NCBI RefSeq assembly: GCF_000316605.1
Contig: NC_019683.1
Location: forward strand, 478,036-542,035
DNA length: 64,000 bases
Reading direction: 5' to 3'
DNA from: [Leptolyngbya] sp. PCC 7376
GTDB lineage: Bacteria > Cyanobacteriota > Cyanobacteriia > Cyanobacteriales > MRBY01
The position numbers and the translations under genes are program-made. Positions 5,768-62,626 of the stretch are shown one piece after another. How positions within the stretch are numbered: position 1 is the stretch's first letter; each line of letters begins with the position of its first letter. The notes beneath the pieces were generated by a model. The model was given only the letters and a program-made list of their open reading frames with translations, was not told the DNA's origin and made no database searches.

Positions 5768-5817
5768 TTTGATGAACTAACTCACCTTTGCATTTGAGGT
5801 AGTGTAATTACGAAAGT

Positions 5818-5848: not shown

Positions 5849-5877
5849 GCAAGGTGATGGCGATCGCCTGAAACTAC

Positions 5878-20562: not shown

Positions 20563-20658
20563 GAGTGTTTTTGGCGCAAACATGCTCTCACTAACTTTGC
20601 TGTTTAGTTGGGCGATCGCCACATTTTTGAAGTATTCCAAATCCAAATAGGAGTAATC

Positions 20659-21363: not shown

Positions 21364-21408
21364 TTCAGCACATCGTTTATCCATACCGTTGCGATAGGAG
21401 AGAGTGTC

Positions 21409-24195: not shown

Positions 24196-24236
24196 TTAGA
24201 GACAGGTTTTATGTCGAAATAGCAGGAGATACCACG

Positions 24237-25469: not shown

Positions 25470-25470
25470 G

Positions 25471-26685: not shown

Positions 26686-26795
26686 CAAAATTCTCCATCA
26701 GGGATTTTAAATTATGTTTGAATGGGCAAATGTAAAAAACAAAACTAACTGCCGATTGATTCAATGAATTTTGCGATTTCGTTGGGCAATCATCT

Positions 26796-27125
26796 CTAAA
26801 ATTTAATCCTTTGCAATGAGCTTAATAAGTTTGGAATATCGATCCGAATTACTTCCCACAAAATTGAAGAGTCTACTTCTTTGTATTCATGAATGACGCG
26901 ATTTCGCATGCCGCGAATTGCATGGAATGGTATTTGAGGGTTTTCCGCAATGAATTTTGTAGAAAAGCGATTTGTTGTTTCTCCTAAAATCGCTATCTGA
27001 TATAGAACTGACGATTGTGTCTTTTTATCTTCCTCAAAGTTTGTATAGTTGTAGCCTTGGCTAAATTGCAAAATGAGATTACACGCTTCTATTGCATCTA
27101 GCAATATCTCTTGGTCTCGATTCAT
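26796..27125 (-). CDS. hepT: HepN (DUF86) HEPN-domain toxin of HepT/MntA-type TA pair
   Basis: Rx4HxY motif (RNRVIHEY); 109 aa; overlaps upstream MNT gene by 4 nt. Confidence 0.8.
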   Translation of the reverse strand: MNRDQEILLDAIEACNLILQFSQGYNYTNFEEDKKTQSSVLYQIAILGETTNRFSTKFIAENPQIPFHAIRGMRNRVIHEYKEVDSSILWEVIRIDIPNLLSSLQRIKF

Positions 27126-27490
27126 CGATTGTATAAAACCTGGCTGTGTTCAAGAATATTGCGGCGGCGGATTGGATTATGACTGTTTTCGATGGAATGG
27201 CGGGTCACAATGTCTATGGGGCGATCGCCAAAAAGCTCGCTAAATTCTTGTTCGATGGTATCGAGATTGAAAAAAGTAATCTTGGCATCTGCGGCAAAAC
27301 TAACCAACAAATCAATATCACTATCTATTCGAAAATCATCCCGCAGTACAGAACCAAAACAGGATAGCTCAGTAATTTTCCAACGTTGACAAATCTCTTC
27401 TAAAGCGCGGCTTGGGATTTTAACTGTTGGGTTTAATACGACAACCTCATCTGTCGAAACCATGGCGATCACCTCAAAATAAGATTGCAT
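27122..27490 (-). CDS. mntA: minimal nucleotidyltransferase (MNT) antitoxin
   Basis: GSVLRDDFRIDSDIDLLV nucleotidyltransferase motif (GS...DxD); 122 aa. Confidence 0.8.
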   Translation of the reverse strand: MQSYFEVIAMVSTDEVVVLNPTVKIPSRALEEICQRWKITELSCFGSVLRDDFRIDSDIDLLVSFAADAKITFFNLDTIEQEFSELFGDRPIDIVTRHSIENSHNPIRRRNILEHSQVLYNR

Positions 27491-27771
27491 TCTAATTATA
27501 AACAGTGCTACCTGAGTAAATTTTGTCTAGTGATAATGAAATGCGAGAACAAAATCAAGAGCTGGTTTATTCGAGGAATTGTGAGATTTCTTGGGGCGAT
27601 CGCCGCGCTAAGTTCAAACGCAATAACGCCAAGACTGGGAATTGCTCTCGTCGCTCGCTAGTTCCTGCTATAAGATCTCTAATACTATTAAGGCGATCGC
27701 CACACCGTATCCTTTGGTCTTTAGTATGGAGGCTACAGGTATTTCGATTGATGTTCAGCTGAGAGAAAACC

Positions 27772-40054: not shown

Positions 40055-43000
40055 CTAGGAAATACTTGATATGGGTAATTGGATACAGAATGTCGTAGAT
40101 TGGCCTAACTCGGATTGAACGGTGAGGCTGCCGCCATGTTTTTTAACAATAATTTGATGGGCGATCGCCAGCCCTAGCCCAGTGCCTTGACCCGCTTTTT
40201 TAGTGGTAAACAAATGCTCGAAAATCTTATCTTGTACCGTCTCAGAAATGCCGCGACCATTATCTGAAATGGTGATTTTGACTTGATTATTGTCTACCTC
40301 TGTGCGAATCGTAATTTGAGGTGAACACTTCTCGATGTCTGCAAAATGAGAGTGAAGATTAGCTTCGTCTAAAGCATCAATGGCATTTGCCAAAATGTTC
40401 ATAAAGACTTGGTTTAATTGTCCAGGGAAACAATCAATAGGCGGAATGTCACCATAGTCGCTAATAACTTTAATTTCAGGACGTTCAGGATTTGCTTTGA
40501 GACGATGGCGCAGAATTAAAATGGTACTTTCCATGCCTTCGTGAATATCAAAACGTTGCTTTTGATCTGTGTCAGCACGAGAAAAGACACGCAAACTTTT
40601 ACTAATAGATGTGATGCGATCGCCACTATCTTCCATGGCTCGAATCAGTTTGGGTAAATCTTCGCGTACATACTCTAGATCGACAGCTTCCAATTCTTCT
40701 TTGAGCCCATCGCTGGGATGAGGAAGTTCTTCGGCATAGAGATCGAGCAACCCGAGTAAATCACTGATGTATTCCTGAGTGGCCCCGACATTGCCGAGAA
40801 TGCAACCAACAGGATTATTAATTTCATGGGCAACCCCCGCCACTAAGCCACCTAAGGCTGACATTTTTTCACTCTGTACCAGTTTTAATTGGGCTTGCTG
40901 TAAATCTGTTAATGTCTGCTGCACCTTTCCATATAGCCGCGCATTTTCTAAAGAAATAGCCGCCTGAGTGCAGAGGATGTTGATCGTCTGGATCCGTTCT
41001 TCTGTAAACACCCCTCTAGTCAAACGATTTTTGAGATATAAAATGCCAATGAGGCTACCTTGGTTGAGTAGCGGCATGCACAAAACACTTTTGGGTTGAC
41101 GCTGGATGAGGTAGTTATCAATGACAGGTAAGTCCGTTTCTAAATCATCGATGACAATAATCTCCTGCGTATTTTTAACGTATTGAATAAGTTTGACTGG
41201 AAGGTCGGGATTATTATCGAGGGGAGTTGTACAAAGCTGGAGTTCTTCTGGGGTGGCGATCGCTCTGACTTGCCACTCGTTAGCTTCACTCGGCAAAATT
41301 AAGGCGCAGCGATCGCCACCAGAATTTTGCAAAATAATCCGAGTGACCTCGGTAAGTAAGGCATTGAGGTCAATGTTACTGGCGATCGCTTGAGAGGCTT
41401 TAAAGATAGCCTGTTGGTCTAACGTTGCATTGATGGAGTAACTCGTATTCGATTGCGCTCTCGTCTGCACGCCAACATAGCGATTAATCATTGAAGTAGA
41501 AACTGAATCGCTCCCAGTGCTTTGTGCTGGTCTAGAAATCCGAGGGGATTGGGTTTCAATCTGAATCGTCTTGGCTCCAGCCCCCCAACGGGCATAGCCA
41601 TAAAAAGCCTCTTGGATATGGGGCATCGCAAAGCTATCCTTACCCTGTTGGTGGTAAAGCCGAGCCGCAAATTCATGGATGAGTGCTTCTTCTTGCATAA
41701 ATCCATTAGTGTGCGCTTCGTCGATTGCCCGATGATATAAGTCCATTGCACCGAGGCGATCGCCTTTTACTCGGCAGCATTCAGCTTTTACCAACAAATA
41801 TTTATGCAGGAAATTTTCTGGGCAACTATCAACCCAAATTTTGAGCTGTTTTTGATTTGCCTCAATCCATTCCCAACGCTTGTGTTCAAGATCTGATGCC
41901 TCGTCAAATTCCGTGTTTAGAAGAACGAGGGAGCCATAGTAAAAGTAGTAGCTATGGGTTGGAAAGCCCACTAGAGAAGACACTATCGGTTGAAGCTGCT
42001 GAAAAAATTGCCACCCTTTCTCAAAGTCTTCGATGATGCAGCAGCGATGCATTTCCAATGAGTAGTGAATGGCTAACCCCAACTGATTACGAGATATCTC
42101 CCCTGCTCGGATAACAGCTTGGGCTTCGGTAATAATTTCTGTTTGTTCCGGGCTAGTGGTATTGGCAGCGACTAACTGTTGCACAAAAATCTGGGCACCT
42201 GCCAGTGCAATTCGGAGCATCTCACTATCTACCTGTTTTTCAACAGCGTCATAGCTCGGCAGAATAGTATTCGCTAAACTCCCTAAGTCTTCTCCTTGGA
42301 AGAGGAGATTCAAGACACTGCCAAAGAGGTTATAGGCTGCATACTGGGTTTCTCCTGCTTCCATCCCGGCTAAAAAACTGTCGTTATTGACCTTCGAGGA
42401 ACCTGCAATTGGTCGAGCCCAAGGATGGGCAAATGAGCCAAGCATGAGTCCCGCTTGACATTGCATCGCCTTACTATTGAATCGATGGGCTAGCTCAACC
42501 CCCATTTCAGCAAAAGTATAGCCTCGTTGATAGTCACCCTGAATTGAGCCGAGCAGCATACCGTAGTTGGCATAGGATTTAGATGATTCTGCAATGTTGC
42601 CATATTCGATAGAGTAACGAGTTCCGAGGAGACCGACTAACGCATAGAGGCTATTTCTGCCCGTAATGTAGACTGGCGGATCAATCGCCACTAATAACTT
42701 AATTGCGGCTTGGATTTTGAGGGGTGGGACTTGATCATTGTGTTCTAATAAGTCATAGATGTGGCGATCGCCCATCATTTCAGCTAAGCGAATAAACTCT
42801 TGCTCAACTAGTGCTGGAATATTGTCCTCTTGGATGTCAATGTCCAAATCTCGCAGCCCTGTTAAACCCCAATCAATCGCCTCAGCATAGCGCCCTTGCA
42901 AACAACAGCCGACTAACTGTAAGACACAAATTTCGGCGCGATCGGTTGCTGATGTAATCTCTGCAAAGGCTTTGTCTGTAGTTTGTTCCAACTCCACATA

Positions 43001-45457
43001 GTTCGCACTACTCAGTTGAGCTGACCCCAATGCTTGATAGAGAGACAGTGTCAGATCATAGTGATGTTGCCATCCTTCATCCCCCAATAGCTCGATACCC
43101 GTTTTACAGTAATCAATAGTGGCATCGTAAGCCGTTGAATTAAGAGCCTTCTGGGCGGCGGCTAAGTTCAGCTGGATGAGTTGTCGCTGTTCATCGTCGT
43201 CCACTAAAAAATCGCGACCGAAATTAAGATAACCCACCACATTGAAGAGGAGGGCATCGTCGTTTGCTTCATTCATACAGGCCAGTAGCAACTGACCGAT
43301 GTGATACTGAGTTGCTACTTTTTCGGCCTCAGGGATTAAGGCGTAAGCCGCCTGTTGTACACGATCATGTAAAAATTGATAGCCCACTGCTAGCTTGTCT
43401 ACGGTGGGGATGCAATCATCATGGTTCTGAAAAAATTTGTAAGTTTCACTTTCTGGAATCACCAACCCTTCTTTTAGGGCGGCCCATAACGCAGTGGCGA
43501 CCTCCTCTTGACTTTGCTCACACACCACAGCCAGTGTTACCAAGTCAAAACGACTACCGATGCAAGCTGCAAGCTTTAACACTGTTTGAGTTGCACTGCT
43601 TAGTCTTTTCAGCCGACTCACCATAAAAGCCACCACATCATTAGTGAGTGCTAAGGCTCTGACCTGGGCGATATCGCATTGCCAACATCCCCCCTCTGCT
43701 GAATAGGCAATAAAACCATCTTCATGCAAGCCTTGCAAAAATTGCGTCGTAAAAAATGGATTACCTTGGGCTTTTTGGAATACTAATTTAGCTAATGCTA
43801 GTGCCGATTCTTGGGAGCATAGTAATGTATCCGCGATTAGGCTCGTAATATCGTCTAGATCTAGAGGGGCTAACGTAATGGTTCCAATATTTGCTCCCTT
43901 TTGAAGCATCTCTTCCAAAGTGAGCATCAACGGATGAGCTGGGGAAACCTCATTGTCCCGATAGGCTCCAAGCACCAATAGGTAGCCTGCATCTGAGTCT
44001 CCCATTAAGAGTTTGACCAACCCCAAAGAAGCCGAATCTGCCCATTGCAGATCATCTAGGAAAATGACTAGGGGATGTTCTTTCGTGGTGAAGACTCGCA
44101 CAAATTGACTAAAGAGGCGATTAAATCGATTTTGTGCGGCGATGCCGGATAGTTCGGGCAAGGGAGGCTGTTCACCAATGATTGTCGCTAGTTCTGGGAT
44201 GACATCAATGATGACTTGACCATTTTCGCCCACAGCTTCAAGGATTTTTGTCCGCCAGCGGGTGAGGTCAGTATCAGATTCTCCTAAAAGCTGTCCCATT
44301 AAGCTACGGAAGGCTTGGACAAAGGCTGAAAAGGGAGTGCTACGGTTAAATTGGTCAAATTTTCCTTTGATAAAGTAACCGTTCTGGCGGGTAATCGGCT
44401 TATGAACTTCATTGATGACTGCTGTTTTACCAATCCCTGAGAAGCCTGCTACCAGCATCATTTCGGTTTGACCCTGGGCAACGCGTTCAAAGGCATTGAG
44501 TAAGGTTTTTGTTTCGGCTTCGCGTCCGTAGAGCTTTTCGGGAATGAGGAAGCGATCGCTGACGTCCCTTAGTCCTAAGCAAAATTCAGCAATCTCTTCT
44601 TGTTTTTTCCATTGTGTGAGGCATTGTTCTAGATCGTATTTCAGACCCAGAGCACTCTGATAGCGGTCTTCCGCATTTTTTTGCATCAGTTTTGCCACGA
44701 GCGCTGCCACCATGGTTGGTATGTTTGGATTGGCCTCAGCGATGGGAGTGGGTTGCTGTGCCATATGGCAATGGATAAGTTCTAGCGGCTCGTCGCTATG
44801 GAAAGGTAATTGCCCAGTCAATAGCTGGTATAGCGTTACCCCGAGGGCATAGAAATCAGTACGATAATCAATTGCTCGGTTCATCCGGCCCGTTTGCTCT
44901 GGGGCAAGATAGGCGAGGGTGCCTTCTAGGCTTTTGGGACTTTGGAGTGCCTGGGTTTCTTTGGGCAGTAGAGAGGCGATGCTAAAGTCAATTAGCTTTA
45001 TTGTTTTTGACTCAGGATGAATCAGAATATTGGCAGGTTTGATGTCTTTATGAATAACTCGATGCTGATGAAGGTCGTGAAGAATATCGGCGAGTTGGCT
45101 GGCGATCGCCAGCACATCAGTTAGATCTAAGGTTTGCTCTTGAAGGAAAGTGTCTAGGGAAATACCACCCCAATCCTCCATCACCAGCACATAGCTATTA
45201 TCTATGGCCTCTAAACTAAGGGGCTTGATAATGCCTGAAATCGGCAGGTTGGCAGTGATCGTATATTGATTGCGAAACTGAACGAGTTCTTTAAAACTCG
45301 GGTAATCTCGCTGTAATACTTTGAGGATAACTGGATTGTTTGAGCCTGATTGTCTAGCGCGATAAACTGCTGTGCGAGACCCCAGATATAGTTGCTCGAC
45401 AATATTAAAACCCGCAATTTCGGGCTTTACGTTAGATCGATTGTCGATGGCGGTCAT
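40055..45457 (-). CDS. multi-sensor signal-transduction multi-kinase: Ser/Thr protein kinase + AAA/NTPase + TPR-like + GAF + HisKA + HATPase_c (1800 aa)
   Basis: HKDIKPANIL catalytic loop and DFS (DFG-like) motif; P-loop GFSGIGKT; GAF region; phospho-acceptor box AHEINNP (HisKA); G-boxes DNGRGI and GTGLGL. Confidence 0.9.
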   Translation of the reverse strand: MTAIDNRSNVKPEIAGFNIVEQLYLGSRTAVYRARQSGSNNPVILKVLQRDYPSFKELVQFRNQYTITANLPISGIIKPLSLEAIDNSYVLVMEDWGGISLDTFLQEQTLDLTDVLAIASQLADILHDLHQHRVIHKDIKPANILIHPESKTIKLIDFSIASLLPKETQALQSPKSLEGTLAYLAPEQTGRMNRAIDYRTDFYALGVTLYQLLTGQLPFHSDEPLELIHCHMAQQPTPIAEANPNIPTMVAALVAKLMQKNAEDRYQSALGLKYDLEQCLTQWKKQEEIAEFCLGLRDVSDRFLIPEKLYGREAETKTLLNAFERVAQGQTEMMLVAGFSGIGKTAVINEVHKPITRQNGYFIKGKFDQFNRSTPFSAFVQAFRSLMGQLLGESDTDLTRWRTKILEAVGENGQVIIDVIPELATIIGEQPPLPELSGIAAQNRFNRLFSQFVRVFTTKEHPLVIFLDDLQWADSASLGLVKLLMGDSDAGYLLVLGAYRDNEVSPAHPLMLTLEEMLQKGANIGTITLAPLDLDDITSLIADTLLCSQESALALAKLVFQKAQGNPFFTTQFLQGLHEDGFIAYSAEGGCWQCDIAQVRALALTNDVVAFMVSRLKRLSSATQTVLKLAACIGSRFDLVTLAVVCEQSQEEVATALWAALKEGLVIPESETYKFFQNHDDCIPTVDKLAVGYQFLHDRVQQAAYALIPEAEKVATQYHIGQLLLACMNEANDDALLFNVVGYLNFGRDFLVDDDEQRQLIQLNLAAAQKALNSTAYDATIDYCKTGIELLGDEGWQHHYDLTLSLYQALGSAQLSSANYVELEQTTDKAFAEITSATDRAEICVLQLVGCCLQGRYAEAIDWGLTGLRDLDIDIQEDNIPALVEQEFIRLAEMMGDRHIYDLLEHNDQVPPLKIQAAIKLLVAIDPPVYITGRNSLYALVGLLGTRYSIEYGNIAESSKSYANYGMLLGSIQGDYQRGYTFAEMGVELAHRFNSKAMQCQAGLMLGSFAHPWARPIAGSSKVNNDSFLAGMEAGETQYAAYNLFGSVLNLLFQGEDLGSLANTILPSYDAVEKQVDSEMLRIALAGAQIFVQQLVAANTTSPEQTEIITEAQAVIRAGEISRNQLGLAIHYSLEMHRCCIIEDFEKGWQFFQQLQPIVSSLVGFPTHSYYFYYGSLVLLNTEFDEASDLEHKRWEWIEANQKQLKIWVDSCPENFLHKYLLVKAECCRVKGDRLGAMDLYHRAIDEAHTNGFMQEEALIHEFAARLYHQQGKDSFAMPHIQEAFYGYARWGAGAKTIQIETQSPRISRPAQSTGSDSVSTSMINRYVGVQTRAQSNTSYSINATLDQQAIFKASQAIASNIDLNALLTEVTRIILQNSGGDRCALILPSEANEWQVRAIATPEELQLCTTPLDNNPDLPVKLIQYVKNTQEIIVIDDLETDLPVIDNYLIQRQPKSVLCMPLLNQGSLIGILYLKNRLTRGVFTEERIQTINILCTQAAISLENARLYGKVQQTLTDLQQAQLKLVQSEKMSALGGLVAGVAHEINNPVGCILGNVGATQEYISDLLGLLDLYAEELPHPSDGLKEELEAVDLEYVREDLPKLIRAMEDSGDRITSISKSLRVFSRADTDQKQRFDIHEGMESTILILRHRLKANPERPEIKVISDYGDIPPIDCFPGQLNQVFMNILANAIDALDEANLHSHFADIEKCSPQITIRTEVDNNQVKITISDNGRGISETVQDKIFEHLFTTKKAGQGTGLGLAIAHQIIVKKHGGSLTVQSELGQSTTFCIQLPISSIS

Positions 45458-45739: not shown

Positions 45740-46040
45740 GCTGTGGCGTGATTAGGTGCAGATTGGACGGTGATGCTGCCACCAAGTTTTTTAGTGATAA
45801 TTTTGATGGGCGATCGCCATCCTTAGCTCAGTTCCGTTTTTCGTTTTTTGTGTAAACAAATGCTTAAAAATCTTTTCTTTTATAGTCTTAGAAATTTTGC
45901 GACTATTATCTGAAATTTTTATTTTGGCATGATGATTTTTTATCTCAGTGCAAATTATTGTCTGAAGAGAATGTTGCTCTGATTTTCTGAGATTAAAGTG
46001 AAGACTAGCGTCATTCAACGTATCAATGGCATTTACCAAG
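45740..46040 (-). pseudogene. decayed duplicate of the histidine-kinase 3' end (HATPase_c fragment)
   Basis: DNA and translated similarity to 40100..40400 (…KIKISDNSRKISKTIKEKIFKHLFTQK… vs …KITISDNGRGISETVQDKIFEHLFTTK…); AT-shifted, truncated. Confidence 0.6.
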
Positions 46041-46396: not shown

Positions 46397-46440
46397 TAGC
46401 AAGTATCAATGGATACGTACGTATCCATTGATACTTGCTA
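46397..46440. repeat. 44-bp perfect palindrome
   Basis: tagcaagtatcaatggatacgt|acgtatccattgatacttgcta, exact reverse-complement symmetry. Confidence 0.9.
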
Positions 46441-46538
46441 TATTTCAAGCAGATTTTTAAGTTCCAAAACTTAATCTAAAGAGATAGTTGACACCGACCT
46501 GATTATCAGTTTTCTAAAAAATAATAATTAATAATTTG

Positions 46539-46650
46539 TATCTAGGGTTCCAGCTCTTTGACATGACTGGGTGTTTGGTCCGAGAGATACAGCCAGTCGA
46601 TTTCTCACATCCAGAAATACTGGTTCACGGAGGGATAAAAGCCCGGGAGG
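46539..46650 (+). ncRNA. guanidine-I (ykkC) riboswitch aptamer
   Basis: Conserved blocks CUAGGGUUCC (46542-46551), GGUCCGAGAG (46576-46585) and ACGGAGGGAUAAAAGCCCGGGAG (46627-46649) in canonical order and spacing; followed by U-rich expression platform and the SSF transporter ORF. Confidence 0.8.
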
Positions 46651-46744
46651 CGTTTGTTGATTTTTCAAGATCACACACTGTCTCTTGGGCTTTCGTTTTT
46701 GCAGAAACTTACAAATGTTCGATATCTAGTTTGGAGATAGATCA

Positions 46745-48250
46745 ATGGAACATACTTCTTTTTCCTATGGAATTATTATTTTTCTATTGGGAACATTGGG
46801 GATTGGAGCCTGGGCTTCCCAGCAAATTAAGGGTGATAGCGTTAACTTTTTGGTCGCTGGACGGGGATTAGCGTTGCCCTTGGCCGCCGCTACTTTGATG
46901 GCTCAGTCGGTGGATTCTAATGCAACGTTGGGTAATACAGATTTGTCGTCTGAGTTTGGCTTTTGGGCTGGTGCAGCTTTACCTATCGGCTTATCTTTAT
47001 GCTTATTTTTAACTGGGACATTTTTGGCAAAACCCATGAATCGCATGGGATTGATTACCATTCCTGACTTCTATCGAGTTAAGTATGGTCGCACTGTTGA
47101 GCTGATTGCAGCTTGCATTATGTGTGTGAGTTTTTCGTTTCTGCTGGCTGGTAACCTCGTTGCGGGTGGCTATATGTTCCAAACGTTCCTCGGAACTAGC
47201 TATGTCGGTGGCATTACTTTGCTCGCAGCTCTTGTCTTTGCCTATACGGTATCTGGAGGCTTATTTGCTGTGGCTTATACCGATGCCATGCAAGTCGTGA
47301 TTGCTTTGCTTGGTACATTAGGTTTGTTGTTTTATCTCGTGGCCAATTTCGGTATTGTGATCGAGCCTGGGATGGGTCCTCTGGCACTGGAACAGTTGAC
47401 GGCGGTAAGTTCTGGGGCTGCGATTAACTGGGCTAGTATTTTGGCTCTAGGACTAGGCAATATGGTAGCGATTGATTTTATGGCTCGAATTTTTGCGGCT
47501 GCAAGCCCCGAAACAGCTCAAAAATCTTGTTATGCAGCTTCTCTTGGCACATTAATCATTGGTATCCCATTTTCAGTCATTGCACTTTCAGCGAATAGAA
47601 TTCTCGACGAGGCTGGAGTTGTCGCTGATGGACCAGTACTGTTTGCTTTACTTCAAAATGCTGTGCCGCCTTTGTTAGGTCTGCTTGTATTAGCGGCAAT
47701 TTTGTCGGCTTCTCTCTCAACTGCTGATGGTGCAATTTTAGGAACATCGTCAGTCTTAGCCCACAATGTTTTTGGAATTCGCCATGAAATTGGTGATGGC
47801 CATAGTGGTGGCGGCGATCGCCTGTTATTCATTACCCGCTTAATGGCTATTTTTATTACGCTCTTAGGGGTCTTCTTGGGACTTAGGGTTCCCCAAACGG
47901 GAGTGCTATTGCTGCTGGGCTTTGACCTGGGTTTTGCTGGATTAGTTGTTCCTCTGTTGGGTGGTCTGTTTTGGAGAAAGGCAACGCCAGAAGGAGCTTT
48001 CGCTTGTATCATTGCAGGTTCTATCACCCGACTTGTGTTCTTTGCCTTTATGCCCACCATGTTTGGCATTGACAACACCCTTTTTTATATTCCCAACAGC
48101 ACATTCACCATTGATTTTGACGGTTTCCCAACGCTGATTAGTCCAATCGTGGGTTTGATTGCCTTCGTCCTCGTCTCTAATCTCACTTACCGTCGCCTTG
48201 ATGCTGGCAAGTTACGGGAAAGAACTTTAGAGGAAATCAAACATCTTTAA
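46745..48250 (+). CDS. sodium:solute symporter family (SSF, DUR3/PutP-like) transporter; candidate guanidine/urea-type importer
   Basis: 501 aa, about 13 TM helices, SSF-typical N-terminus; RBS ggaga; directly downstream of riboswitch. Confidence 0.85.
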   Translation: MEHTSFSYGIIIFLLGTLGIGAWASQQIKGDSVNFLVAGRGLALPLAAATLMAQSVDSNATLGNTDLSSEFGFWAGAALPIGLSLCLFLTGTFLAKPMNRMGLITIPDFYRVKYGRTVELIAACIMCVSFSFLLAGNLVAGGYMFQTFLGTSYVGGITLLAALVFAYTVSGGLFAVAYTDAMQVVIALLGTLGLLFYLVANFGIVIEPGMGPLALEQLTAVSSGAAINWASILALGLGNMVAIDFMARIFAAASPETAQKSCYAASLGTLIIGIPFSVIALSANRILDEAGVVADGPVLFALLQNAVPPLLGLLVLAAILSASLSTADGAILGTSSVLAHNVFGIRHEIGDGHSGGGDRLLFITRLMAIFITLLGVFLGLRVPQTGVLLLLGFDLGFAGLVVPLLGGLFWRKATPEGAFACIIAGSITRLVFFAFMPTMFGIDNTLFYIPNSTFTIDFDGFPTLISPIVGLIAFVLVSNLTYRRLDAGKLRERTLEEIKHL

Positions 48251-48436
48251 TGCTTCTGAAGTGGTTTTCGCTCAGCAAAGAAGAAAATCATTTCTTCTGT
48301 CTGTCTAAACCAAGGTGTATCCCTCGATAGGCAAACCTAATTGTCGAGGGAATATATCAGCCTAATCCCCTCAACATTGACCAAAAGAAATTGGTAAAAG
48401 TATCAACTCAGAATTTTGATTATGAACGTGTAAATC

Positions 48437-49630
48437 ATGACAGATAACCCAACTTTTCAGGAACCAGACTCCAATTCAGAGCCGATGTCAGAAGCTAAAC
48501 GGGCACTGGAACTCGAAACTCATCTTCCCTTAACGGGTTGGCAGCAGGAAGTTGACCAAGGTCTGGAATATGGTCTAGAGGCCGCAGACAGTATCGGTGA
48601 TCGCACGATTTCTACATTCTCTAGGGGTGAGCTGCCCCACTATGCGGGTATCAATACCTTCATGAAGGCGCCTTATGTCGAGGATGTTCGCCTAGTCGGT
48701 AATTATGATGTGGCGATCGTCGGTGTCCCCCACGATTCCGGAACCACTTATCGTCCGGGCACTCGCTTTGGTCCCCAAGGTATTCGCCGAATATCAGCTT
48801 TGTACACTCCCTATAATTTTGAATTAGGCGTTGATCTTCGCGAACAAATTAAGCTCTGCGATGTCGGTGATATCTTTACGATTCCTGGCAATAACGAAAA
48901 ATCATTTGATCAAATTTCTAAAGGAATCGCTCACATTTTTAGTTCGGGTGCTTTCCCAATTATCTTGGGCGGTGACCATTCCATTGGCTTTCCGACAGTG
49001 CGTGGAATTTGTCGTCATTTAGGCGATAAAAAAGTCGGCATTATTCACTTTGACCGCCATGTCGATACCCAAGAAACGGACTTAGACGAGCGGATGCACA
49101 CTTGTCCCTGGTTTCATGCGACCAATATGGCCAATGCCCCCGCGAAGAATCTGGTACAGCTAGGCATCGGTGGCTGGCAAGTGCCTCGCCAGGGCGTCAA
49201 AGTTTGCCGGGAACGTGCGACCAATATCCTAACTGTGACCGACATCATGGATATGGGCATGGATGCAGCGGTAGATTTCGCATTAGAGCGCGCGATGGAT
49301 GGCACGGACTGTGTCTGGATTAGCTTTGATATTGACTGTATCGATGCTGGATTCGTGCCGGGTACAGGTTGGCCTGAGCCAGGTGGATTACTCCCCCGTG
49401 AAGCGCTTTATTTGTTGGGTAAAATTGTCTCACGTGCGCCGGTTTGTGGCCTAGAGATAGTTGAAGTTTCTCCGCCCTATGACGTGAGCGATATGACTTC
49501 GCTGATGGCGACCCGTGTGATTTGCGATACGATGGCTCAGCTTGTGCTCTCTGGTCAATTGCCACGTACAGAAAAGCCTAGTTATATCCATGAAGAAGCC
49601 AATATGGATATAGATCAACCCTGGCGTTAA
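48437..49630 (+). CDS. arginase/agmatinase-family ureohydrolase with N-terminal extension; candidate guanidine hydrolase (GdmH-like) or agmatinase
   Basis: GGDHS, FDRHVDT, SFDIDCIDAGFVPGTG metal-binding motifs; 397 aa; same operon as riboswitch-controlled transporter. Confidence 0.85.
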   Translation: MTDNPTFQEPDSNSEPMSEAKRALELETHLPLTGWQQEVDQGLEYGLEAADSIGDRTISTFSRGELPHYAGINTFMKAPYVEDVRLVGNYDVAIVGVPHDSGTTYRPGTRFGPQGIRRISALYTPYNFELGVDLREQIKLCDVGDIFTIPGNNEKSFDQISKGIAHIFSSGAFPIILGGDHSIGFPTVRGICRHLGDKKVGIIHFDRHVDTQETDLDERMHTCPWFHATNMANAPAKNLVQLGIGGWQVPRQGVKVCRERATNILTVTDIMDMGMDAAVDFALERAMDGTDCVWISFDIDCIDAGFVPGTGWPEPGGLLPREALYLLGKIVSRAPVCGLEIVEVSPPYDVSDMTSLMATRVICDTMAQLVLSGQLPRTEKPSYIHEEANMDIDQPWR

Positions 49631-49695: not shown

Positions 49696-50682
49696 TTAGG
49701 CGATCGCCTGTAGATTTTCTTCGATGTGAGCGTTCGGGTCATGGGAGCGGATTTGCTCAATAAAAAAGTCTTCGAGGGTCGGTCGCGCCAATTTTAGATC
49801 CATGAGCTTTGCACCCATCAGATTGAGAGATGCTAAAAAGGCTTGTTGATCACCGACCAGATGCCCATGCCATTTCCCCTCGCGTAACTGTAGATCTGGG
49901 AGCCATTTTTTGAGCTGGGTTTGGTCTCCCCCGCGTACGATGGCTTGATAACGATCTTCTGTCCCCAATAATTCACTCAGAGTACCTGTGCAAATGATTT
50001 CGCCCTTCGACAAAATTGCGAGGCGATCGCAAATTTGTTCGACGTCAGCGAGAATGTGAGAATTAAAAAAGATGGTTTTGCCTTGCTCCTTTAGCGACAA
50101 AATAATTTCCCGCACCTGAAAGCGTCCCAGTGGATCAAGACCAGACATCGGCTCATCGAGGAACACCAAATCTGGGTCATTAATTAATGCCTGTGCCATC
50201 CCAACTCGTTGGAGCATCCCCTTGGAATACTTGCGCATTTGGCGTTTCTTGGCGATTTCTTTTGCCAAACCCACCGTATCCAACAGTGTGTTGATACGTT
50301 TGTGGCGACGCTTCTTGGGGATTTGAAAGAGTGACCCCGTAAAGTCCAAAAATTCCCAAGCCGTTAGATAGTCATAGAAATAGGCATTTTCCGGTAGATA
50401 ACCAATTTTTTCTCTCGTTTGGCGATCGCCGATCGGCTTACCTAGGAGCGTTGCCTGCCCTGCACTTTTCCGAATAATCCCCAACAAAATCTTGAGCATG
50501 GTTGTTTTACCAGCACCGTTAGGCCCCAATAGCCCAAACGTTTCCCCCGGCATCACCTCAAGAGAACAGTTCTTTAGAGATTGACTTGTTTTATTGAGCC
50601 AGAACCCTGTGCGATAAATTTTACTGATACGGTTTGTTGTCAGGATCGCCGCGTTATCTAGGATTCTGGGGTCAGTCTGCAT
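49696..50682 (-). CDS. ABC transporter ATP-binding protein
   Basis: Walker A GPNGAGKTT, signature YSKGMLQR, Walker B LVFLDEP. Confidence 0.85.
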   Translation of the reverse strand: MQTDPRILDNAAILTTNRISKIYRTGFWLNKTSQSLKNCSLEVMPGETFGLLGPNGAGKTTMLKILLGIIRKSAGQATLLGKPIGDRQTREKIGYLPENAYFYDYLTAWEFLDFTGSLFQIPKKRRHKRINTLLDTVGLAKEIAKKRQMRKYSKGMLQRVGMAQALINDPDLVFLDEPMSGLDPLGRFQVREIILSLKEQGKTIFFNSHILADVEQICDRLAILSKGEIICTGTLSELLGTEDRYQAIVRGGDQTQLKKWLPDLQLREGKWHGHLVGDQQAFLASLNLMGAKLMDLKLARPTLEDFFIEQIRSHDPNAHIEENLQAIA

Positions 50683-57090: not shown

Positions 57091-57717
57091 CTAATAATTC
57101 TCTAGAACTTCAGTTGCATAAGAATCTGTTTTGTCGAATTCTAAAGGCCCAATAGCTGAGCCCCAGACTTGTTCATCAGTATCTACATCTAAACCTCGAT
57201 CCCACCCAATAAAGCTTGTCTCCGTAAAACGTGCATCGCTCACCAAATAAGTTCTTTTCCCACGCTTTTCGATTACACAACATTTCCCTTCTACTCGACC
57301 TTGAAAACCATTATTTTCAGGCCGAAAGATCATTGAGCAATTACAGCGGCGTTCGATTACCTCTGGTTTAATACTGCGGAGGATATCTAGATTGCGACCA
57401 GCACCAGCATAGAGCAAAGCATCTTTGAGACTATAGTTTTCGATATAAACCTCATCGCCATGGGGTACGAACCGATGAATGCCTTGGCGGTAAGGTAACC
57501 AGAGATCATAGTCATAGACTTGCTCTGAATAAAACCCAATGCCATTAAAAAATTCCCAGGGCAAAGGGCGAAAGAAAACACGGATGTGGGCGTAATTTTT
57601 TGAATCAGCAAAAGATTGCTTTTGGTTGCTAAATCCACCGGCCATGGTGCGCGCCAGAGAATACATTAATGTCTGCTCTGCTGGAGAGGGACTTTTTTTA
57701 TCGACTTGATAAACCAT
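57091..57717 (-). CDS. cpeT: phycobilin lyase CpcT/CpeT family
   Basis: DUF1001-type beta-barrel sequence (…AGGFSNQKQSFADSKNYAHIRVFFRPLPWEFFNGIGFYSEQ…). Confidence 0.85.
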   Translation of the reverse strand: MVYQVDKKSPSPAEQTLMYSLARTMAGGFSNQKQSFADSKNYAHIRVFFRPLPWEFFNGIGFYSEQVYDYDLWLPYRQGIHRFVPHGDEVYIENYSLKDALLYAGAGRNLDILRSIKPEVIERRCNCSMIFRPENNGFQGRVEGKCCVIEKRGKRTYLVSDARFTETSFIGWDRGLDVDTDEQVWGSAIGPLEFDKTDSYATEVLENY

Positions 57718-57750
57718 AGCTACAGTCAGTTTTAAGTATTTTTAAAATAA

Positions 57751-58284
57751 TTAGGCTGTCGCTTCTTCGCGAATTTCTGATGAAAAAGAAGCTGTCACGA
57801 CACCACTACCCGCACTTGTTTTAATCAATGAGACTCGCATTCTGAAATTAGGATTTGCGAACCAAATTCTCTCTTCTGCTGCGGCACGATCATATGTTGT
57901 CTTTAAAACAAATGCACCATCTTGATCGAAGTAATATTCACCGGCAGAGCTAATTGTTTCAGCATATCCTTGATCACGTAATAACTTTCCTTTTTGAGAA
58001 TCTGTTGTATCAGGGATCGGAATTAGAATTGTTGTGCCAGAAAAGGTTTCATCGTCATCCCAGTCAGATTCTCCTTCCCAGCTCATCCGAAATGGTGTCG
58101 CTGTAACTTCTGGGTCTATATCGTAGGTTTTGCAAAGAGCAATAACGTCAGGATTTTCTTTCGGGAGAGGTTCGATATTAATTGTCGATGTCACCTGTTC
58201 AAAGTGACCGAAGGCAAGATGGTGAGCACTACGCTGCGATCGCCACTGACCGAGCGAACTCTCTACAAATTTTTCTATATCCAT
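57751..58284 (-). CDS. cpeS: phycobilin lyase CpcS/CpeS family
   Basis: N-terminal FVESSLGQWRSQRSAHH motif of S-type lyases; 177 aa. Confidence 0.8.
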   Translation of the reverse strand: MDIEKFVESSLGQWRSQRSAHHLAFGHFEQVTSTINIEPLPKENPDVIALCKTYDIDPEVTATPFRMSWEGESDWDDDETFSGTTILIPIPDTTDSQKGKLLRDQGYAETISSAGEYYFDQDGAFVLKTTYDRAAAEERIWFANPNFRMRVSLIKTSAGSGVVTASFSSEIREEATA

Positions 58285-58526
58285 AAAAATCTTAAAAAAG
58301 AATTAAAAATCGACTTTTGTTTTGACTAAATTGCCAGGTTTTTAAAAGGAATTATTATAAAAATATTTCTTTAGTTTAAATTAATGGCGATGCTTTTGCG
58401 AAGGATATGTCGTAATATTCCGCAATATAAAAAACGGACTACCGAAATAGTCCGCTGCATTTGGATCCGCAATACTTGTGAGATGAGTGCAATCTAAAAC
58501 AAGTTCAGAATTGCTTAAACAGAAAT

Positions 58527-59294
58527 TTACGCGACTTCGGTGATCCCGAGAATAGTGCCGCCTGCCTTCTGGATGTTTTGAATGTTACGAGAGAGCTGCT
58601 TGTAGTTGACTTCGATGTAAGTCTTGCTCAACTTCTTGACAGGAGTTGTACCTGCGCCAGCAATGTCGATGCGGAAGCGCTTGTTTGTTGCGCCTGTTGC
58701 ACCACCGCGGGAGCTTGCAACTTTAACTTCTTGGGGAAGGTTACCTGCAATGCTGCCAACGAGTGCTGCATCACCACCGCGATCGCTAGTTGCATAGCCA
58801 CCAAGGAGGGAAACAGTTTGATTGAACGTATTGTTCTTAAAGCCAGTTTGAGTGCTGATTGTACGGGGATAAGGTACAACGTTTTCACCGAAAGCATTAG
58901 CGTATTCTTCGCTATCGATATAAGAATCGATATCAGCGCTATAGCCTTCTGTGGTGTAAGTTGTGACGTGCTCAGAGATTTCGCCTTGACCTTCAGGTGC
59001 ACGACCGAGCAGATGTTTGAAGTTTAGTTCAATGCTGCGGTAAGCAGGGCTGCCTTCGAAGAAGAGACTCTGATAAAAATCAGACTGAGCAACTGTGCGG
59101 ACAAAGTCACGGACAGTGATGTCACCGTTGCGAAGCATGGACTCTGCACTTTCAAATGCTTGTGCAGAGAGAACATGAACGTTGCCGAGGACCTGCTTGT
59201 AGATTGCGCGGATAACGACTTGCAGTTCGTCTTCAGTCGCGTTGTCGCGGAGCTCGACGGGGGCACCCGTAAAGCCAGCTGTTAAAGTCGACAT
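58527..59294 (-). CDS. cpeE: phycobilisome rod linker polypeptide (PBS-linker domain + C-terminal CpcD domain), CpeE-like
   Basis: VIRAIYKQVLGN...ELNFKHLLGR...DSYIDSEEY linker domain; C-terminal KRFRIDIAG...GGTILGITEV CpcD domain. Confidence 0.8.
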   Translation of the reverse strand: MSTLTAGFTGAPVELRDNATEDELQVVIRAIYKQVLGNVHVLSAQAFESAESMLRNGDITVRDFVRTVAQSDFYQSLFFEGSPAYRSIELNFKHLLGRAPEGQGEISEHVTTYTTEGYSADIDSYIDSEEYANAFGENVVPYPRTISTQTGFKNNTFNQTVSLLGGYATSDRGGDAALVGSIAGNLPQEVKVASSRGGATGATNKRFRIDIAGAGTTPVKKLSKTYIEVNYKQLSRNIQNIQKAGGTILGITEVA

Positions 59295-59375
59295 TCGTTG
59301 TCTCCTAAAGTATTAGTGATTTTTTAAAAGGTTGTTTATGCTGCCAATTTGCAGGGGCAATGGAAATAAATCGCC

Positions 59376-60110
59376 TTACAAATTGATGATTTCAAATGCA
59401 GCAAGGGCAACTGAAACTGTTCCCAGTAAAAGTAGCCCAGCACCACCGTAGGTGATGATTTTGCCGACAACACTGACCCAAGTAGGTGCCACCCAAGGCT
59501 TGTCTACAAAAGGAATATCACCGAAGTAGCCTTGTGCAATTAGGCGATCACGGTGATCGTTGCCATAGCGTGGCATCCGAGCAATGGGAGACTCTCCCTG
59601 GAGTTGCTGCGGCAAAATACGACGTCTTTGGTAGGGTACTGTGTCGAGCCCAAAATTATCCAGATACTCGTCACTATTGAGCAGGTCATTCACAAAACCC
59701 TGCATGCCTTTGGTCGCAATGACGATGGACCAAGCAATTTTTTCCTGCTCGTTGTAGACTTCTCGTCCTAGCACTCGCTGAACGCACATCTGGACAAGAC
59801 GATAATTATTGTTGACATCAACATTACGTTGACGGAATGAATCGGATAGCAGGAGACCTTGAATAAAGTCTCTAACCGTAATCTGTTTATTTTTGAGCTG
59901 GGATTCCAATTCGCGCTTGCGGTTCGCAACTAACATCTGTTGCTCGTTGAAAATCTGGCGATATGCAGCTCTAATTACTAACTCGATCTCTAAGCTCGAT
60001 GATGTATTTTCGACATTGAAAAATTGAGATTGTTCTTCACCAGCGACTTCAAAGCCTTTTACTCTATGGTTTCGGCTGTTTGGCGCGTAATCAAGTCGAG
60101 GAATAGCCAT
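59376..60110 (-). CDS. cpcL: CpcG-family rod-core linker with hydrophobic C-terminal membrane anchor (CpcL/CpcG2-type)
   Basis: MAIPRLDYAPNSRNHRVKGFEV CpcG N-terminus; PBS-linker domain; C-terminal WVSVVGKIITYGGAGLLLLGTVSVALAAF TM helix. Confidence 0.8.
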   Translation of the reverse strand: MAIPRLDYAPNSRNHRVKGFEVAGEEQSQFFNVENTSSSLEIELVIRAAYRQIFNEQQMLVANRKRELESQLKNKQITVRDFIQGLLLSDSFRQRNVDVNNNYRLVQMCVQRVLGREVYNEQEKIAWSIVIATKGMQGFVNDLLNSDEYLDNFGLDTVPYQRRRILPQQLQGESPIARMPRYGNDHRDRLIAQGYFGDIPFVDKPWVAPTWVSVVGKIITYGGAGLLLLGTVSVALAAFEIINL

Positions 60111-60312
60111 GGTGTTAAAAATTTAAATTTTTATAAAAAGGGGTCGGTACAGGCATGGGTAGCAATTGGCGATCGCCCCTAAAGGCAATGAATAATCTAA
60201 TGAATTCGTTGTCGAGAGCGGCGATCACCAACGACTAAACCCATGCTCAATGTGGGGTTTGCCTAGTTATCCTGACCAATATCGATTGAACACAACCGAA
60301 ACAGGACAATAA

Positions 60313-61077
60313 CTAGTTGACTTCAGTGATGCTGACGATACGACCACCAGCACGGTGAATGCGCTGAATCTGAGGTGTCATGCGATTGCCAGGAACGATG
60401 TACTCGCTGTTGCTGACGCGGCGGGGGCTGTCAAACTTGAAGCTAGTTGCAACAATTTTGAAAGTCTTACCAGTTGCATCTGCATAACCAGCAATACGAC
60501 CACCAGTGGAAGGAGTCTCAGCATCAGTGGAGAGATCACAAGCAAGATCGTCAACAAGACGCGCATCAGTAAACGCACTGTCAACACCTGCATAACCCTG
60601 ATAAACAGAGAGCGTACGGTTATAAGTTACGTTCTTTTGACCTACCTGAGTCTGCGCACCACAGTAGTAAGGAACGATGTTCTCACCGAAGTTGGTAATA
60701 TACTCTTCACTGTCGATATAAGAATCAATCTCAGCATCGTAGCCAGCATCAACTGTCTTGCAGATGTGCTCAGAAAGCTCTGCTTGGTCAGCAGGAGAAC
60801 GACCGAGAAGATGCTTGAAATTTAGCTCTACGAAACGGTAGGGCGCACAGGATTCAAAATAGCGGCTTTGGTAAAAACTAGACTTTGCAACAGCACGAAC
60901 AAATTCACGTACTGTTAGCTCACCATTAGCAAGCTGAGACTCAGCTTCAACTAGACGCTCACTTTCCATTACATGGGGATTTCCAAGCACTTGCTTGTAA
61001 ACCGCACGAACGACAGTGGATACATCGGCATTGCTTGTACTGGAAAGTTCGACTGGAGTATCTAAAACTACACTCAT
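60313..61077 (-). CDS. cpeD: phycobilisome rod linker polypeptide with CpcD domain, CpeD-like
   Basis: PBS-linker domain + C-terminal CpcD domain; RBS aggag. Confidence 0.8.
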   Translation of the reverse strand: MSVVLDTPVELSSTSNADVSTVVRAVYKQVLGNPHVMESERLVEAESQLANGELTVREFVRAVAKSSFYQSRYFESCAPYRFVELNFKHLLGRSPADQAELSEHICKTVDAGYDAEIDSYIDSEEYITNFGENIVPYYCGAQTQVGQKNVTYNRTLSVYQGYAGVDSAFTDARLVDDLACDLSTDAETPSTGGRIAGYADATGKTFKIVATSFKFDSPRRVSNSEYIVPGNRMTPQIQRIHRAGGRIVSITEVN

Positions 61078-61139
61078 GGAATGAAAGCTCCTAAAGAAAT
61101 TAAAGAGGTTTTTTTAAAAAAAGCTTAGAATTGCGAGAT

Positions 61140-62021
61140 CTAGCAAGGTGTGATGCTAGAGATTACACCGCCAGTTGCATGGATCCGCTTGTACTCATCG
61201 CTAAGACGATTGAAAGGTACGTAGTAAACTTTGTTGCTACGGCGGAACTTGGAAATGCGATTGACTTTGCCGGGAGAAGCATAGCCTGTAACTTCGATGC
61301 GGAACATCTTGCCGTTTTCGCCTGCACCAGAACCAAGACGAGTCAAGCCAGCATCGCGCACATTGGACTCTTGGAAAGACCAGCCATTACCAGCAGAACC
61401 AGCAGAAGGTGAAACAACAGGAATTGGAGTGTTGTTGATCACGTTGCGGTTGAGGACAGGGTTAATGCCAGAGATACTACCTTTTAGGTCACTGCTAGAT
61501 GCGCCACGCTGCATTGCAAATGTATGCGTGAAGCTAACCATGCTGATGCCAGCGGAAGTCTTATAACCACGGAGGTAAGGGACAAAGTCTTCACCGAATG
61601 TCGCTTGATATTCGTCACTGTCGAGGTAAGAGTCGATTTCTGCTTCATAGCCACCGTTGTCGAGGAGGGTGCTATGCACACGCATTTCTTCAAGGTCTTT
61701 GGGAGTACGACCCAAGAAGTGTTTGAAGTTGAGCTCGATGAAACGGTAACGAGGTGTTGTTTCAAAGAAACGGCTACTGTACAAATCGGATTTGGCGATC
61801 GCCCGTACAAATTCACGAACGCTCAATTCGCCTCTTTTGAATTGCGATTCTGCTACAGAAGCACGCTCGCTTTCCATTACATAGGCATTACCTAAGATTT
61901 GGCGGTAGATAGCACGAATGATAGCTTCTTGCTCATCTGCACGTTGTCCCGGAATGGACTCAATCGGGTCAGTCTCTTCAAAGAGAGCAACGCCGAGTCT
62001 GGATGCGGGTCCAAAAGTCAT
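61140..62021 (-). CDS. cpeC: phycobilisome rod linker polypeptide with CpcD domain, CpeC-like
   Basis: Start at MTFGPASRLGV (RBS ggag); linker domain + CpcD domain (MFRIEVTGY...VYYVPFNRLSDEYKRIH). Confidence 0.8.
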   Translation of the reverse strand: MTFGPASRLGVALFEETDPIESIPGQRADEQEAIIRAIYRQILGNAYVMESERASVAESQFKRGELSVREFVRAIAKSDLYSSRFFETTPRYRFIELNFKHFLGRTPKDLEEMRVHSTLLDNGGYEAEIDSYLDSDEYQATFGEDFVPYLRGYKTSAGISMVSFTHTFAMQRGASSSDLKGSISGINPVLNRNVINNTPIPVVSPSAGSAGNGWSFQESNVRDAGLTRLGSGAGENGKMFRIEVTGYASPGKVNRISKFRRSNKVYYVPFNRLSDEYKRIHATGGVISSITPC

Positions 62022-62626
62022 AAGAAGAGGATCTCCTTTATCAATCAATATTTGGGTTTTCGGTGGGGGAAATGACCGTTAAAGGTGGGGTTCCCAACCC
62101 GATCCCTGAGCAATCCTAGTGCATCTCTTAATGCTGAATTTCAGCTCGAAATCTCAAAAAAATACCGAGCTAGCACAAAGTACTGCTACGCGTTATCCGA
62201 GCAGCAGCGCCAGAGAAATCCGTAGCATATATAACGAAAAACATTGGATACTCAAGACAAATATTGCGTTCTCCCGGACACAAACTATCGGTGGACGCAA
62301 TATAACGTAATAAACGTTACAGAACGTCACGCGCCGACACTCATGGTTCAAAAAGTTCCAATGTTTGGTGTGAACTGTAAATGCTGCTAGCTAAGCTTTT
62401 CTAGTATCTACAGTACGGGTGCTTGAAATATAAATTTTAGTAGTGTTCTCTTAATGTTTAAGGCCGTTTTCTGATGTTGATCGCGGTGATTTTAGGAACA
62501 ATCTTCCGAAAAGTATCTGGCTAGGCTTAAATAAGTGCCTTTGTGAAGAAATGTTTGGCTACGATGCGGATGGCGATCGCCTACAATCAGATCTTGATGT
62601 TGAGTTGTATTTGATTTGCCTGTCTA

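Follow-up and report, generated by a model that had tools for sequence, protein, structure and literature searches.

The 64-kb stretch of [Leptolyngbya] sp. PCC 7376 DNA analysed here (the window) contains a gene of the sodium:solute symporter family (SSF) that is preceded by a guanidine riboswitch and followed by gdmH, the gene of a predicted Ni-dependent guanidine hydrolase. A protein with 100% identity to the encoded SSF protein is recorded for that strain. Read along the plus strand, the locus opens with a palindrome of NtcA boxes at 46397–46440, a putative NtcA-activated promoter, together with a putative −10 hexamer, TATATT (46439–46444), which would set the transcription start near 46450. 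The Guanidine-I aptamer (Rfam RF00442) occupies 46531–46651 and is overlapped by its expression platform, a terminator with U-tract located by folding at 46638–46700. The SSF gene (46745–48250, 501 residues, PF00474), which encodes a candidate Na+-coupled guanidinium importer, starts 93 bases downstream of the aptamer, with a Shine-Dalgarno-like GGAGA (46733–46737, read from the sequence) 7 nucleotides (nt) ahead of its start codon. It is separated from gdmH (48437–49630, 397 residues, assigned by PF00491 and GdmH orthology) by a 186-nt spacer (48251–48436) with hairpins at ~48314–48358 and with neither a hairpin-plus-U-tract terminator, an aptamer nor a strong promoter match. The next gene, identified from its open reading frame (ORF) and profile matches, encodes an ATP-binding cassette (ABC) ATPase and is convergent (49696–50682, minus strand). 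Rfam, PF00474 and PF00491 thus place the aptamer, the SSF gene and the arginase-fold gene where an initial annotation, made from the letters of this DNA, had put them, and the convergent ABC ATPase it named as the next gene is also there. The locus is probably a two-gene guanidine-assimilation operon under two controls, NtcA and the Guanidine-I riboswitch.

Homologous loci were collected by a tblastn scan (E ≤1e-3, one genome per species) that returned 292 relatives of the SSF gene. The locus counts given below rest on the best 80 of these 292, species-level loci with 67–89% identity, all of them cyanobacterial where the record names a taxon and several labelled only 'uncultured bacterium'. 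The window aptamer, the sole Rfam match at gathering score in the 64 kb, covers the full RF00442 model (positions 1–107) with 76.4 bits against a gathering score of 63 (E 7.8e-12). It reaches 111 bits with a covariance model of our own, which was built from 28 homologous leaders and then run on the 80 related loci. That model gave 79 matches at E ≤0.01, one of them a chance-level match of 17.7 bits inside a gdmH gene. When 18 loci were sampled with Rfam's own model, the aptamers of 17 were confirmed, and the one left over had only a fragment cut by a contig end. All 42 columns that are invariant among the 28 aligned SSF and gdmH leaders are also found in the window aptamer. Across 79 leaders standard pairs fill 96.5% of the pair cells, as against 30–53% in slid controls, and compensatory changes occur in 18 of the 25 pairs.

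The conserved 3′ segment of the aptamer, AAAGCCCGGGAG (46638–46649), doubles as the 5′ arm of a terminator hairpin (46638–46693) whose closing arm, CTCTTGGGCTTT (46682–46693), is followed by a T5 run at 46696–46700. Folded alone, this region has an energy of −33.2 kcal/mol (z −5.5), which none of 200 shuffled sequences equalled. The same overlap of hairpin and U-run was detected by a strict rule in 43 of 53 SSF leaders; in seven others folding revealed the complementary arm with a shorter U-run, and in the three remaining leaders, which lack the search motif, the complementary arm was seen by eye. Score above the gathering threshold, conserved core, helices P1, P1a/b, P2 and P3 and competing terminator all place the leader in the Guanidine-I class. 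Its layout is that predicted for a transcriptional ON switch of the usual Guanidine-I design, in which the liganded aptamer would withhold the 5′ arm of the terminator. The homologous aptamer of Synechocystis, studied by in-line probing and reporter assays, binds guanidine with a dissociation constant of ~58 uM (PMC12704784). Four loci display substitutions at otherwise invariant aptamer positions (L027 3721–3843, L046 5784–5907, L060 5787–5907 and L077 5727–5849; example segments are GCCTGGGAAG and ACAGAGGGA). The altered aptamers of L046, L060 and L077 score 19–40 bits, and that of L027 still scores 98 bits; these may be decaying riboswitches or riboswitches of altered specificity.

The palindrome upstream of the aptamer is perfect over 44 bp (22-nt arms, no spacer) and comprises two GTAN8TAC boxes of NtcA consensus, GTATCAATGGATAC (46403–46416) and GTATCCATTGATAC (46421–46434). 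The TATATT hexamer lies 22 nt after the first box, reproducing the geometry GTAN8TAC-N22-TAN3T, the known spacing of NtcA promoters. The whole window contains seven GTAN8TAC boxes where 5.7 are expected, and taken alone its NtcA boxes could be due to chance. Among 76 homologous riboswitch leaders, 50 have a perfect GTAN8TAC within 250 nt upstream, an enrichment of more than 10-fold over a background of 0.04 per 250 nt, and the distance of the box is clustered at ~110–165 nt before SSF leaders and at ~55–63 nt before gdmH leaders. NtcA control of gdmH and gimABC, with which the promoter spacing seen here is consistent, has been demonstrated experimentally in Synechocystis (PMC12704784). The enrichment of NtcA boxes upstream of the leaders therefore suggests that the SSF gene belongs to a nitrogen-scavenging regulon and, by its agreement with the NtcA regulation demonstrated for gdmH and gimABC, that the role of the SSF protein is import for scavenging and not detoxification. 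We infer from these elements that NtcA binds upstream of the aptamer. The two boxes of the window are 18 bp apart and homologous loci have a single box; the doubled box might accommodate two NtcA dimers or, alternatively, extrude as a cruciform or hairpin.

Control of SSF genes by Guanidine-I riboswitches is common in the homologous loci. The aptamer is located 80–220 nt upstream of the SSF gene in 54 of the 80 loci, and in a further 13 the SSF gene is the last of a one-strand array of riboswitch, gdmH, HypA-like, HypB-like and SSF genes, so that 67 of the 80 SSF genes are under riboswitch control. When full strength is defined as at least 82 bits with covariance model R1, the 54 direct leaders divide into 50 full-strength aptamers, three degenerate or weak ones (L046, L060 and L077) and one cut by a contig end. 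A divergent riboswitch-gdmH unit is also present in seven of these 54 loci. In the 13 operon loci the spacing between hypB and the SSF gene is mostly 66–160 nt, and the SSF gene takes the place held by gimABC, encoding an ABC importer, in Cyanobacterium aponinum and in Synechocystis. Across lineages, no genes recur beside the SSF gene except gdmH (21 loci), hypB (17) and hypA (15). In at least two genomes gdmH and a riboswitch-SSF unit are both present but unlinked. Halomicronema CCY15110 carries a gdmH-hypA-GlnSynt_C-hypB-gimABC cluster, with a glutamine-synthetase-like gene (Gln-synt_C) between hypA and hypB (L089, 8001–15537), together with a separate riboswitch-SSF unit (L033), and hence both transporter types in one genome. 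In the metagenome-assembled genome (MAG) P01_G01_bin.39, gdmH stands alone (L090) and the riboswitch-SSF unit is found elsewhere (L079). Because of this pattern of riboswitch, gdmH-hypAB association and co-occurrence, the SSF protein is to be placed, on genomic context, among the regular members of the cyanobacterial guanidine regulon, sometimes beside the ABC importer and sometimes in its stead. Halomicronema would be a case of coexistence with the high-affinity GimABC, and the gdmH-hypAB-SSF operons would be cases in which the SSF protein has replaced it.

Other features recur in the flanks of the SSF loci. A gene of ~535 residues for an NMT1_2 (NitT/TauT-type) substrate-binding protein adjoins the SSF gene, usually in convergent orientation, in L002, L003, L005, L008, L012 and L034, and genes for a PAS histidine kinase are found repeatedly upstream in these flanks. 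Locus L035 matches the glutamine riboswitch RF01739 at 4235–4323 (minus strand), on the strand opposite to the SSF gene (1180–2676) and ~1.6 kb past it, and has two Guanidine-I aptamers as well, which brings two nitrogen-related riboswitch classes within a few kb. Two SSF homologues with 82–85% identity have no aptamer, and their upstream regions (L010 ~5840–6000 and L015 ~5680–5990) are full of short tandem or hairpin repeats, as if the leaders had been replaced by repeats.

The order riboswitch, SSF gene, gdmH was absent from all 83 other loci checked, namely the 80 loci and the three closest SSF relatives (L086–L088, SSF proteins 86–90% identical). These closest relatives possess the riboswitch-SSF unit without gdmH downstream, the downstream ORF of L087 being unrelated to GdmH. 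All 21 gdmH genes found in other loci have an aptamer of their own, and a search with filters off revealed neither an aptamer nor a remnant of one belonging to the gdmH of the window. A gdmH that follows the SSF gene and lacks both its own aptamer and adjacent Ni chaperones is, by comparison with these loci, peculiar to PCC 7376. The initial annotation had regarded the whole as an unusual, compact unit; the peculiarity resides in the SSF-then-gdmH order, while the riboswitch-SSF link is common in cyanobacteria.

Since gdmH has no aptamer of its own, its response to guanidine would need read-through from the SSF leader. Neither a hairpin-plus-U-tract terminator nor a convincing promoter was found in the 186-nt spacer, and promoter-like matches in the region number three, compared with 6.0 in shuffled sequence. 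Transcription of gdmH by read-through from the single SSF leader is the simplest reading and a likely one. The two genes might instead be mere neighbours, with the riboswitch governing the SSF gene alone and a guanidine-blind gdmH expressed from a promoter of its own in the spacer or at the 3′ end of the SSF gene. In 63 of 76 other loci the gene that comes next lies on the strand opposite to the SSF gene, which therefore normally ends its unit or makes it up alone; this favours separate transcription, as do the length of the spacer with its stable hairpins, a sigma-70-like match (TTGGCA-17-TATATT) at 48063–48091 and an imperfect NtcA-like box at 48394. The last of these would, however, set the transcription start past the conserved ATG. 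The lack of a hairpin-plus-U-tract terminator between the genes and the shortage of promoter-like matches relative to shuffled sequence also argue against an independent gdmH, and it would be odd for a gene that is riboswitch-controlled in 21 of 21 other cases to lose that control without a substitute. Separate transcription is possible but unlikely.

The SSF protein aligns with PF00474 along the entire profile (positions 1–406 of 406, 104.6 bits, E 7e-30). The NCBIfam subfamily models (PutP, PanF, ActP and VC_2705) all score far below their cut-offs, the best being PutP with 101.5 against 515.5, and the generic sss superfamily model reaches 99 bits against a cut-off of 184. Among solved structures the closest matches are sfCHT and CHT1, which are Na+-dependent choline transporters (E ~1e-18), and next vSGLT. 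The label DUR3-like given in the initial annotation found no specific support. DUR3/UreA belongs to the same Pfam family as the SSF protein, but nothing in the NCBIfam or structure matches points there, and the nearest characterised relatives, all far below the cut-offs, are CHT-type proteins and PutP, as judged from these matches and not from a direct comparison with DUR3 sequences.

The ligand sites of CHT1 (PMC11589582) were mapped onto the SSF protein through an HMMER alignment of ~20–25% identity, and invariance was assessed over 81 homologues. The Na2 site of CHT1, formed by A60, V63, A343, S346 and S347, corresponds to A53, V56, A322, S325 and T326, which are invariant in the 81 homologues. 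Similarly, the Na3 residues D188, D349 and S350 correspond to D180, D328 and G329, where serine is replaced by glycine and the Asp pair is invariant. In contrast, the aromatic cage that holds choline in CHT1 (W62, Y67, Y91, W141, W254 and W406) is represented by S55, A60, L83, L133, A242 and L389, and the chloride loop VGGGY by VDSNA, with an invariant Asp57. The SSF protein shares PF00474 with CHT1/SLC5A7 and sfCHT (8j74, 9rws; PMC11589582, PMC13220886), whose substrate is a small organic cation. The Na2 residues (Ser-Ser/Thr of transmembrane helix (TM) 8) and the two Na3 aspartates align in what is a weak match, while the six cage residues and the Cl− loop are replaced. A choline transporter is ruled out by the absence of the CHT1 cage. 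Acidic residues invariant among the 81 homologues are D57, D66, D180, D244, D328 and D394. On this mapping the protein resembles a functional Na+ symporter whose pocket is small, acidic and devoid of an aromatic cage, a picture that is only suggestive because of the low identity of the alignment. Candidate guanidinium ligands are Asp57, located in the unwound segment of TM1 where CHT1 has its chloride loop, and Asp244 of TM6.

From the conserved genomic context and these residues, the SSF clade quite probably constitutes a new family of carriers that import guanidinium together with Na+ and that NtcA and the Guanidine-I riboswitch would jointly gate in at least 67 cyanobacterial species. A different function under the same guanidine control has to be considered, in which the SSF protein exports guanidinium, like Gdx or PrqA, or carries urea, a substituted guanidine or a choline-like cation. 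Exporters are the commonest targets of Guanidine-I riboswitches (PMC12186494), and in Synechocystis, for which efflux is important, concentrations of guanidine above 5 mM are toxic (PMC12704784). Gdx, a SugE-type protein belonging to the SMR (small multidrug resistance) family, shares with the SSF protein ON control by a guanidine riboswitch and guanidinium as the proposed substrate. It differs in its unrelated fold (a dimer of four-TM SMR subunits), in exporting by H+ antiport and in having no link to NtcA or gdmH. The residues of the Na2 site are intact in the SSF protein of the window, which argues against export. Characterised SSF members are Na+-driven importers, and the expulsion of a cation through a Na+ symporter against an inside-negative potential would be energetically unfavourable. 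The NtcA boxes, which assign the SSF gene to a nitrogen-scavenging regulon, likewise speak against export, and its occupation of the gimABC position in gdmH-hypAB operons argues against any function other than import. Cargoes other than guanidine are suggested by fungal UreA, an SSF member that transports urea and has measurable affinity for guanidine (PMC9783183), and by the choline, itself an organic cation, that is carried by the nearest solved relative. All six cage residues of CHT1 are, however, replaced by small or aliphatic ones, and a substituted guanidine would not feed GdmH, which is specific for guanidine (PMC12186494). A function other than guanidine import is thus improbable.

The hydrolase gene product matches PF00491 (Arginase, E 1.6e-76) from residue 91 onwards, in agreement with the N-terminal extension of about 60 residues noted in the initial annotation, the region ahead of the domain comprising ~60–90 residues. 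Both this N-terminal region and the C-terminal tail are common to Synechocystis Sll1077, and can therefore be considered traits of the family. The identity to Sll1077 (PDB 7esr/7oi1) is 88.5% over 383 ungapped residues (E 2.5e-241, 804 bits), and that to the guanidinase of N. inopinata (9fek) is 68% (E 8e-176). Other ureohydrolases, including proclavaminate amidinohydrolase, guanidinobutyrase, metformin hydrolase and agmatinases, reach at most 169 bits, with solved agmatinases at 118–129 bits. The residues that mark the guanidinase of N. inopinata, Thr105, His222, Trp313 and Glu344 (PMC11410670), are matched by T104, H221, W312 and E343, and the metal motifs GGDHS at 178, DRHVD at 206 and SFDIDCID at 296 are intact. 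Sll1077 hydrolyses guanidine and not agmatine (PMC12186494, PMC12704784). On the strength of its identity to GdmH and of the signature residues, the hydrolase is assigned as a GdmH orthologue, a guanidinase and not an agmatinase; the resemblance to the GdmH class seen at first is thereby confirmed through the comparison with GdmH, agmatinases and guanidinobutyrases that had been suggested, in which GdmH is far ahead and the active-site signature is kept. That the module handles agmatine or polyamines through an agmatinase (SpeB) instead of guanidine is extremely improbable and is ruled out by GdmH identity and signature residues, for although NCBIfam TIGR01230 (agmatinase) is barely over threshold (174.7 bits against a cut-off of 174.3) and homologues bear the name 'agmatinase' in the source databases, a name that stems from this model and is superseded by the experimental work on Sll1077, the enzyme is 88.5% identical to a protein that hydrolyses guanidine and not agmatine, scores 804 bits to GdmH against 118–129 bits to solved agmatinases, retains the guanidinase signature and is encoded downstream of a guanidine riboswitch.

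Genes of the HypA/HypB type, whose absence next to the module had been pointed out in the initial annotation, are missing both beside it and from the entire 64-kb window, as judged by tblastn with GhaA and GhaB of locus L061 (best E 0.18) and by Pfam scans of all window ORFs of at least 110 residues not contained in a longer ORF. Ni chaperones are likewise absent next to gdmH in MAG P01_G01_bin.39 and in comammox, so that adjacent GhaA/GhaB, though common, are accessory and not defining. Recent horizontal transfer was considered and rejected: the GC profile is not distinctive, with ~0.50 in gdmH and 0.42–0.47 around it.

Two known guanidine systems resemble the locus. In Synechocystis sp. PCC 6803, gdmH-ghaA-ghaB (sll1077-1079) and gimABC (sll1080-1082) are accompanied by a Guanidine-I riboswitch and an NtcA promoter (PMC12704784). 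The two strains have in common an orthologous enzyme, the same riboswitch class with a terminator-type ON switch, an NtcA-type box upstream and guanidine as the presumed nitrogen source. They differ in the gene that follows the riboswitch, which is the transporter gene in PCC 7376 and gdmH in Synechocystis, and in that the PCC 7376 transporter is a single-gene SSF secondary carrier, whereas that of Synechocystis is a NitT/TauT-type ABC importer. In addition, PCC 7376 has no ghaA/ghaB (HypA/HypB-like) genes in the 64 kb, and its gdmH has no aptamer of its own. Synechocystis also has sll1087, a gene annotated as Na+/glucose cotransporter-like. In comammox Nitrospira a Guanidine-I riboswitch precedes an 'APC superfamily permease' and a guanidinase, both genes being induced by guanidine and without Ni chaperones nearby (PMC11410670). 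The order riboswitch, secondary permease, guanidinase is identical to that of PCC 7376, neither locus has Ni chaperone or ABC transporter genes nearby, and the guanidinases share 68% identity (9fek); phylum, physiology and permease family differ. The difference in permease family is deduced from relatives, two Nitrospira-type contigs (L083–L085) in which the permease next to the guanidinase belongs to AA_permease (PF00324/PF13520) and not to PF00474 SSF, and not from the N. inopinata gene itself. The guanidine transporters named in reviews and primary papers are ABC importers, the APC permease and the Gdx and PrqA exporters, with no SSF symporter among them. An additional guanidine uptake system, its identity left open, has been inferred in the Synechocystis study (PMC12704784; Itzenhaeuser et al. 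2025).

Taken together, the orthology of the enzyme and the tie of the SSF clade to the riboswitch and to gdmH-hypA-hypB support the candidate module of guanidine import and guanidinase that the initial annotation had put forward. Under nitrogen limitation NtcA would activate the predicted promoter ~80 nt upstream of the aptamer. As long as guanidine is absent, the leader would form the terminator using the 3′ end of the aptamer, and transcription would halt ahead of the SSF gene. Intracellular guanidine would bind the aptamer and sequester the 5′ arm of the terminator, allowing the polymerase to read through. The SSF transporter would then take up guanidinium together with Na+, and GdmH, presumably loaded with Ni in the absence of adjacent GhaA/GhaB, would cleave guanidine to urea and ammonium. 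Read-through would also couple the importer, whose substrate is a toxic cation, with the enzyme that disposes of this cation, the two always being made together.

Several observations weigh against this interpretation. Thirteen of the 80 SSF genes are not under riboswitch control: no aptamer was found in 12 loci, one of them truncated at the 5′ end of the SSF gene, and in L056 the only aptamer precedes a divergent gdmH. The aptamers of three of the 54 direct leaders (L046, L060 and L077) are degenerate or weak, and the binding-site mapping relies on an alignment of ~20–25% identity. At 186 nt the spacer is long and it is structured (z −3.5), the hairpin at ~48314–48358 could attenuate or process the transcript, and the imperfect NtcA-like box, GTAN8AAC at 48394, precedes gdmH. 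Neither hypA/hypB nor genes for a urease, a Ni transporter or gimABC were found within the window, and full assimilation depends on genes elsewhere. Finally, no literature linking this SSF clade or SSF transporters to guanidine or ykkC was found, an earlier mention being possible in some key subscription papers.

Elsewhere in the window, an ORF of 82 residues (45791–46039, minus strand) resembles a decayed copy of the HATPase_c C-terminus of the neighbouring 1800-residue gene (40055–45457), which has Ser/Thr kinase, AAA_16, GAF and His kinase domains; the ORF, situated between this gene and the promoter of the riboswitch, is probably what remains of a pseudogene. A biosynthetic-looking run of genes at 18553–29322 (plus strand) includes a fusion of a PLP-decarboxylase with a PF10014 2OG-Fe dioxygenase, a second PF10014 protein, a class-V aminotransferase, an epimerase, a class-I/II aminotransferase, a PALP+ACT enzyme (threonine-dehydratase-like) and an ATP-grasp/PGM1_C protein, and may serve to make a modified amino acid or some other small molecule. 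Two convergent genes for the fluoride channel CrcB (12029–12406, plus strand, and 12428–12844, minus strand) are present, and no fluoride riboswitch reaches the gathering score of Rfam there. At 57091–62048 (minus strand) genes for the bilin lyases CpeT and CpeS and then four phycobilisome linker genes form a pigment-rod cluster.

Guanidine has been recognised as a natural nitrogen source only lately, and direct experimental support from substrate binding and knockouts so far exists for the GimABC importer only, the APC permease of comammox having been proposed from induced expression. Riboswitch and GdmH of PCC 7376 both belong to known families and are ordinary there; the part worth following is the SSF clade. 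A conserved single-gene carrier linked to both the riboswitch and NtcA is a concrete, testable candidate that would overturn nothing. The PCC 7376 arrangement, with one leader, one carrier and one hydrolase, is the most compact found here; this makes it convenient as a test system, and synthetic biology might use it as a portable 'guanidine utilisation cassette'. If the assignment holds, the SSF carrier would be the kind of additional uptake route that Itzenhaeuser et al. 2025 inferred, the guanidine regulon would have a third transporter family, and the SLC5/SSF fold, which is of medical importance, would gain a new class of substrate in the planar guanidinium cation.

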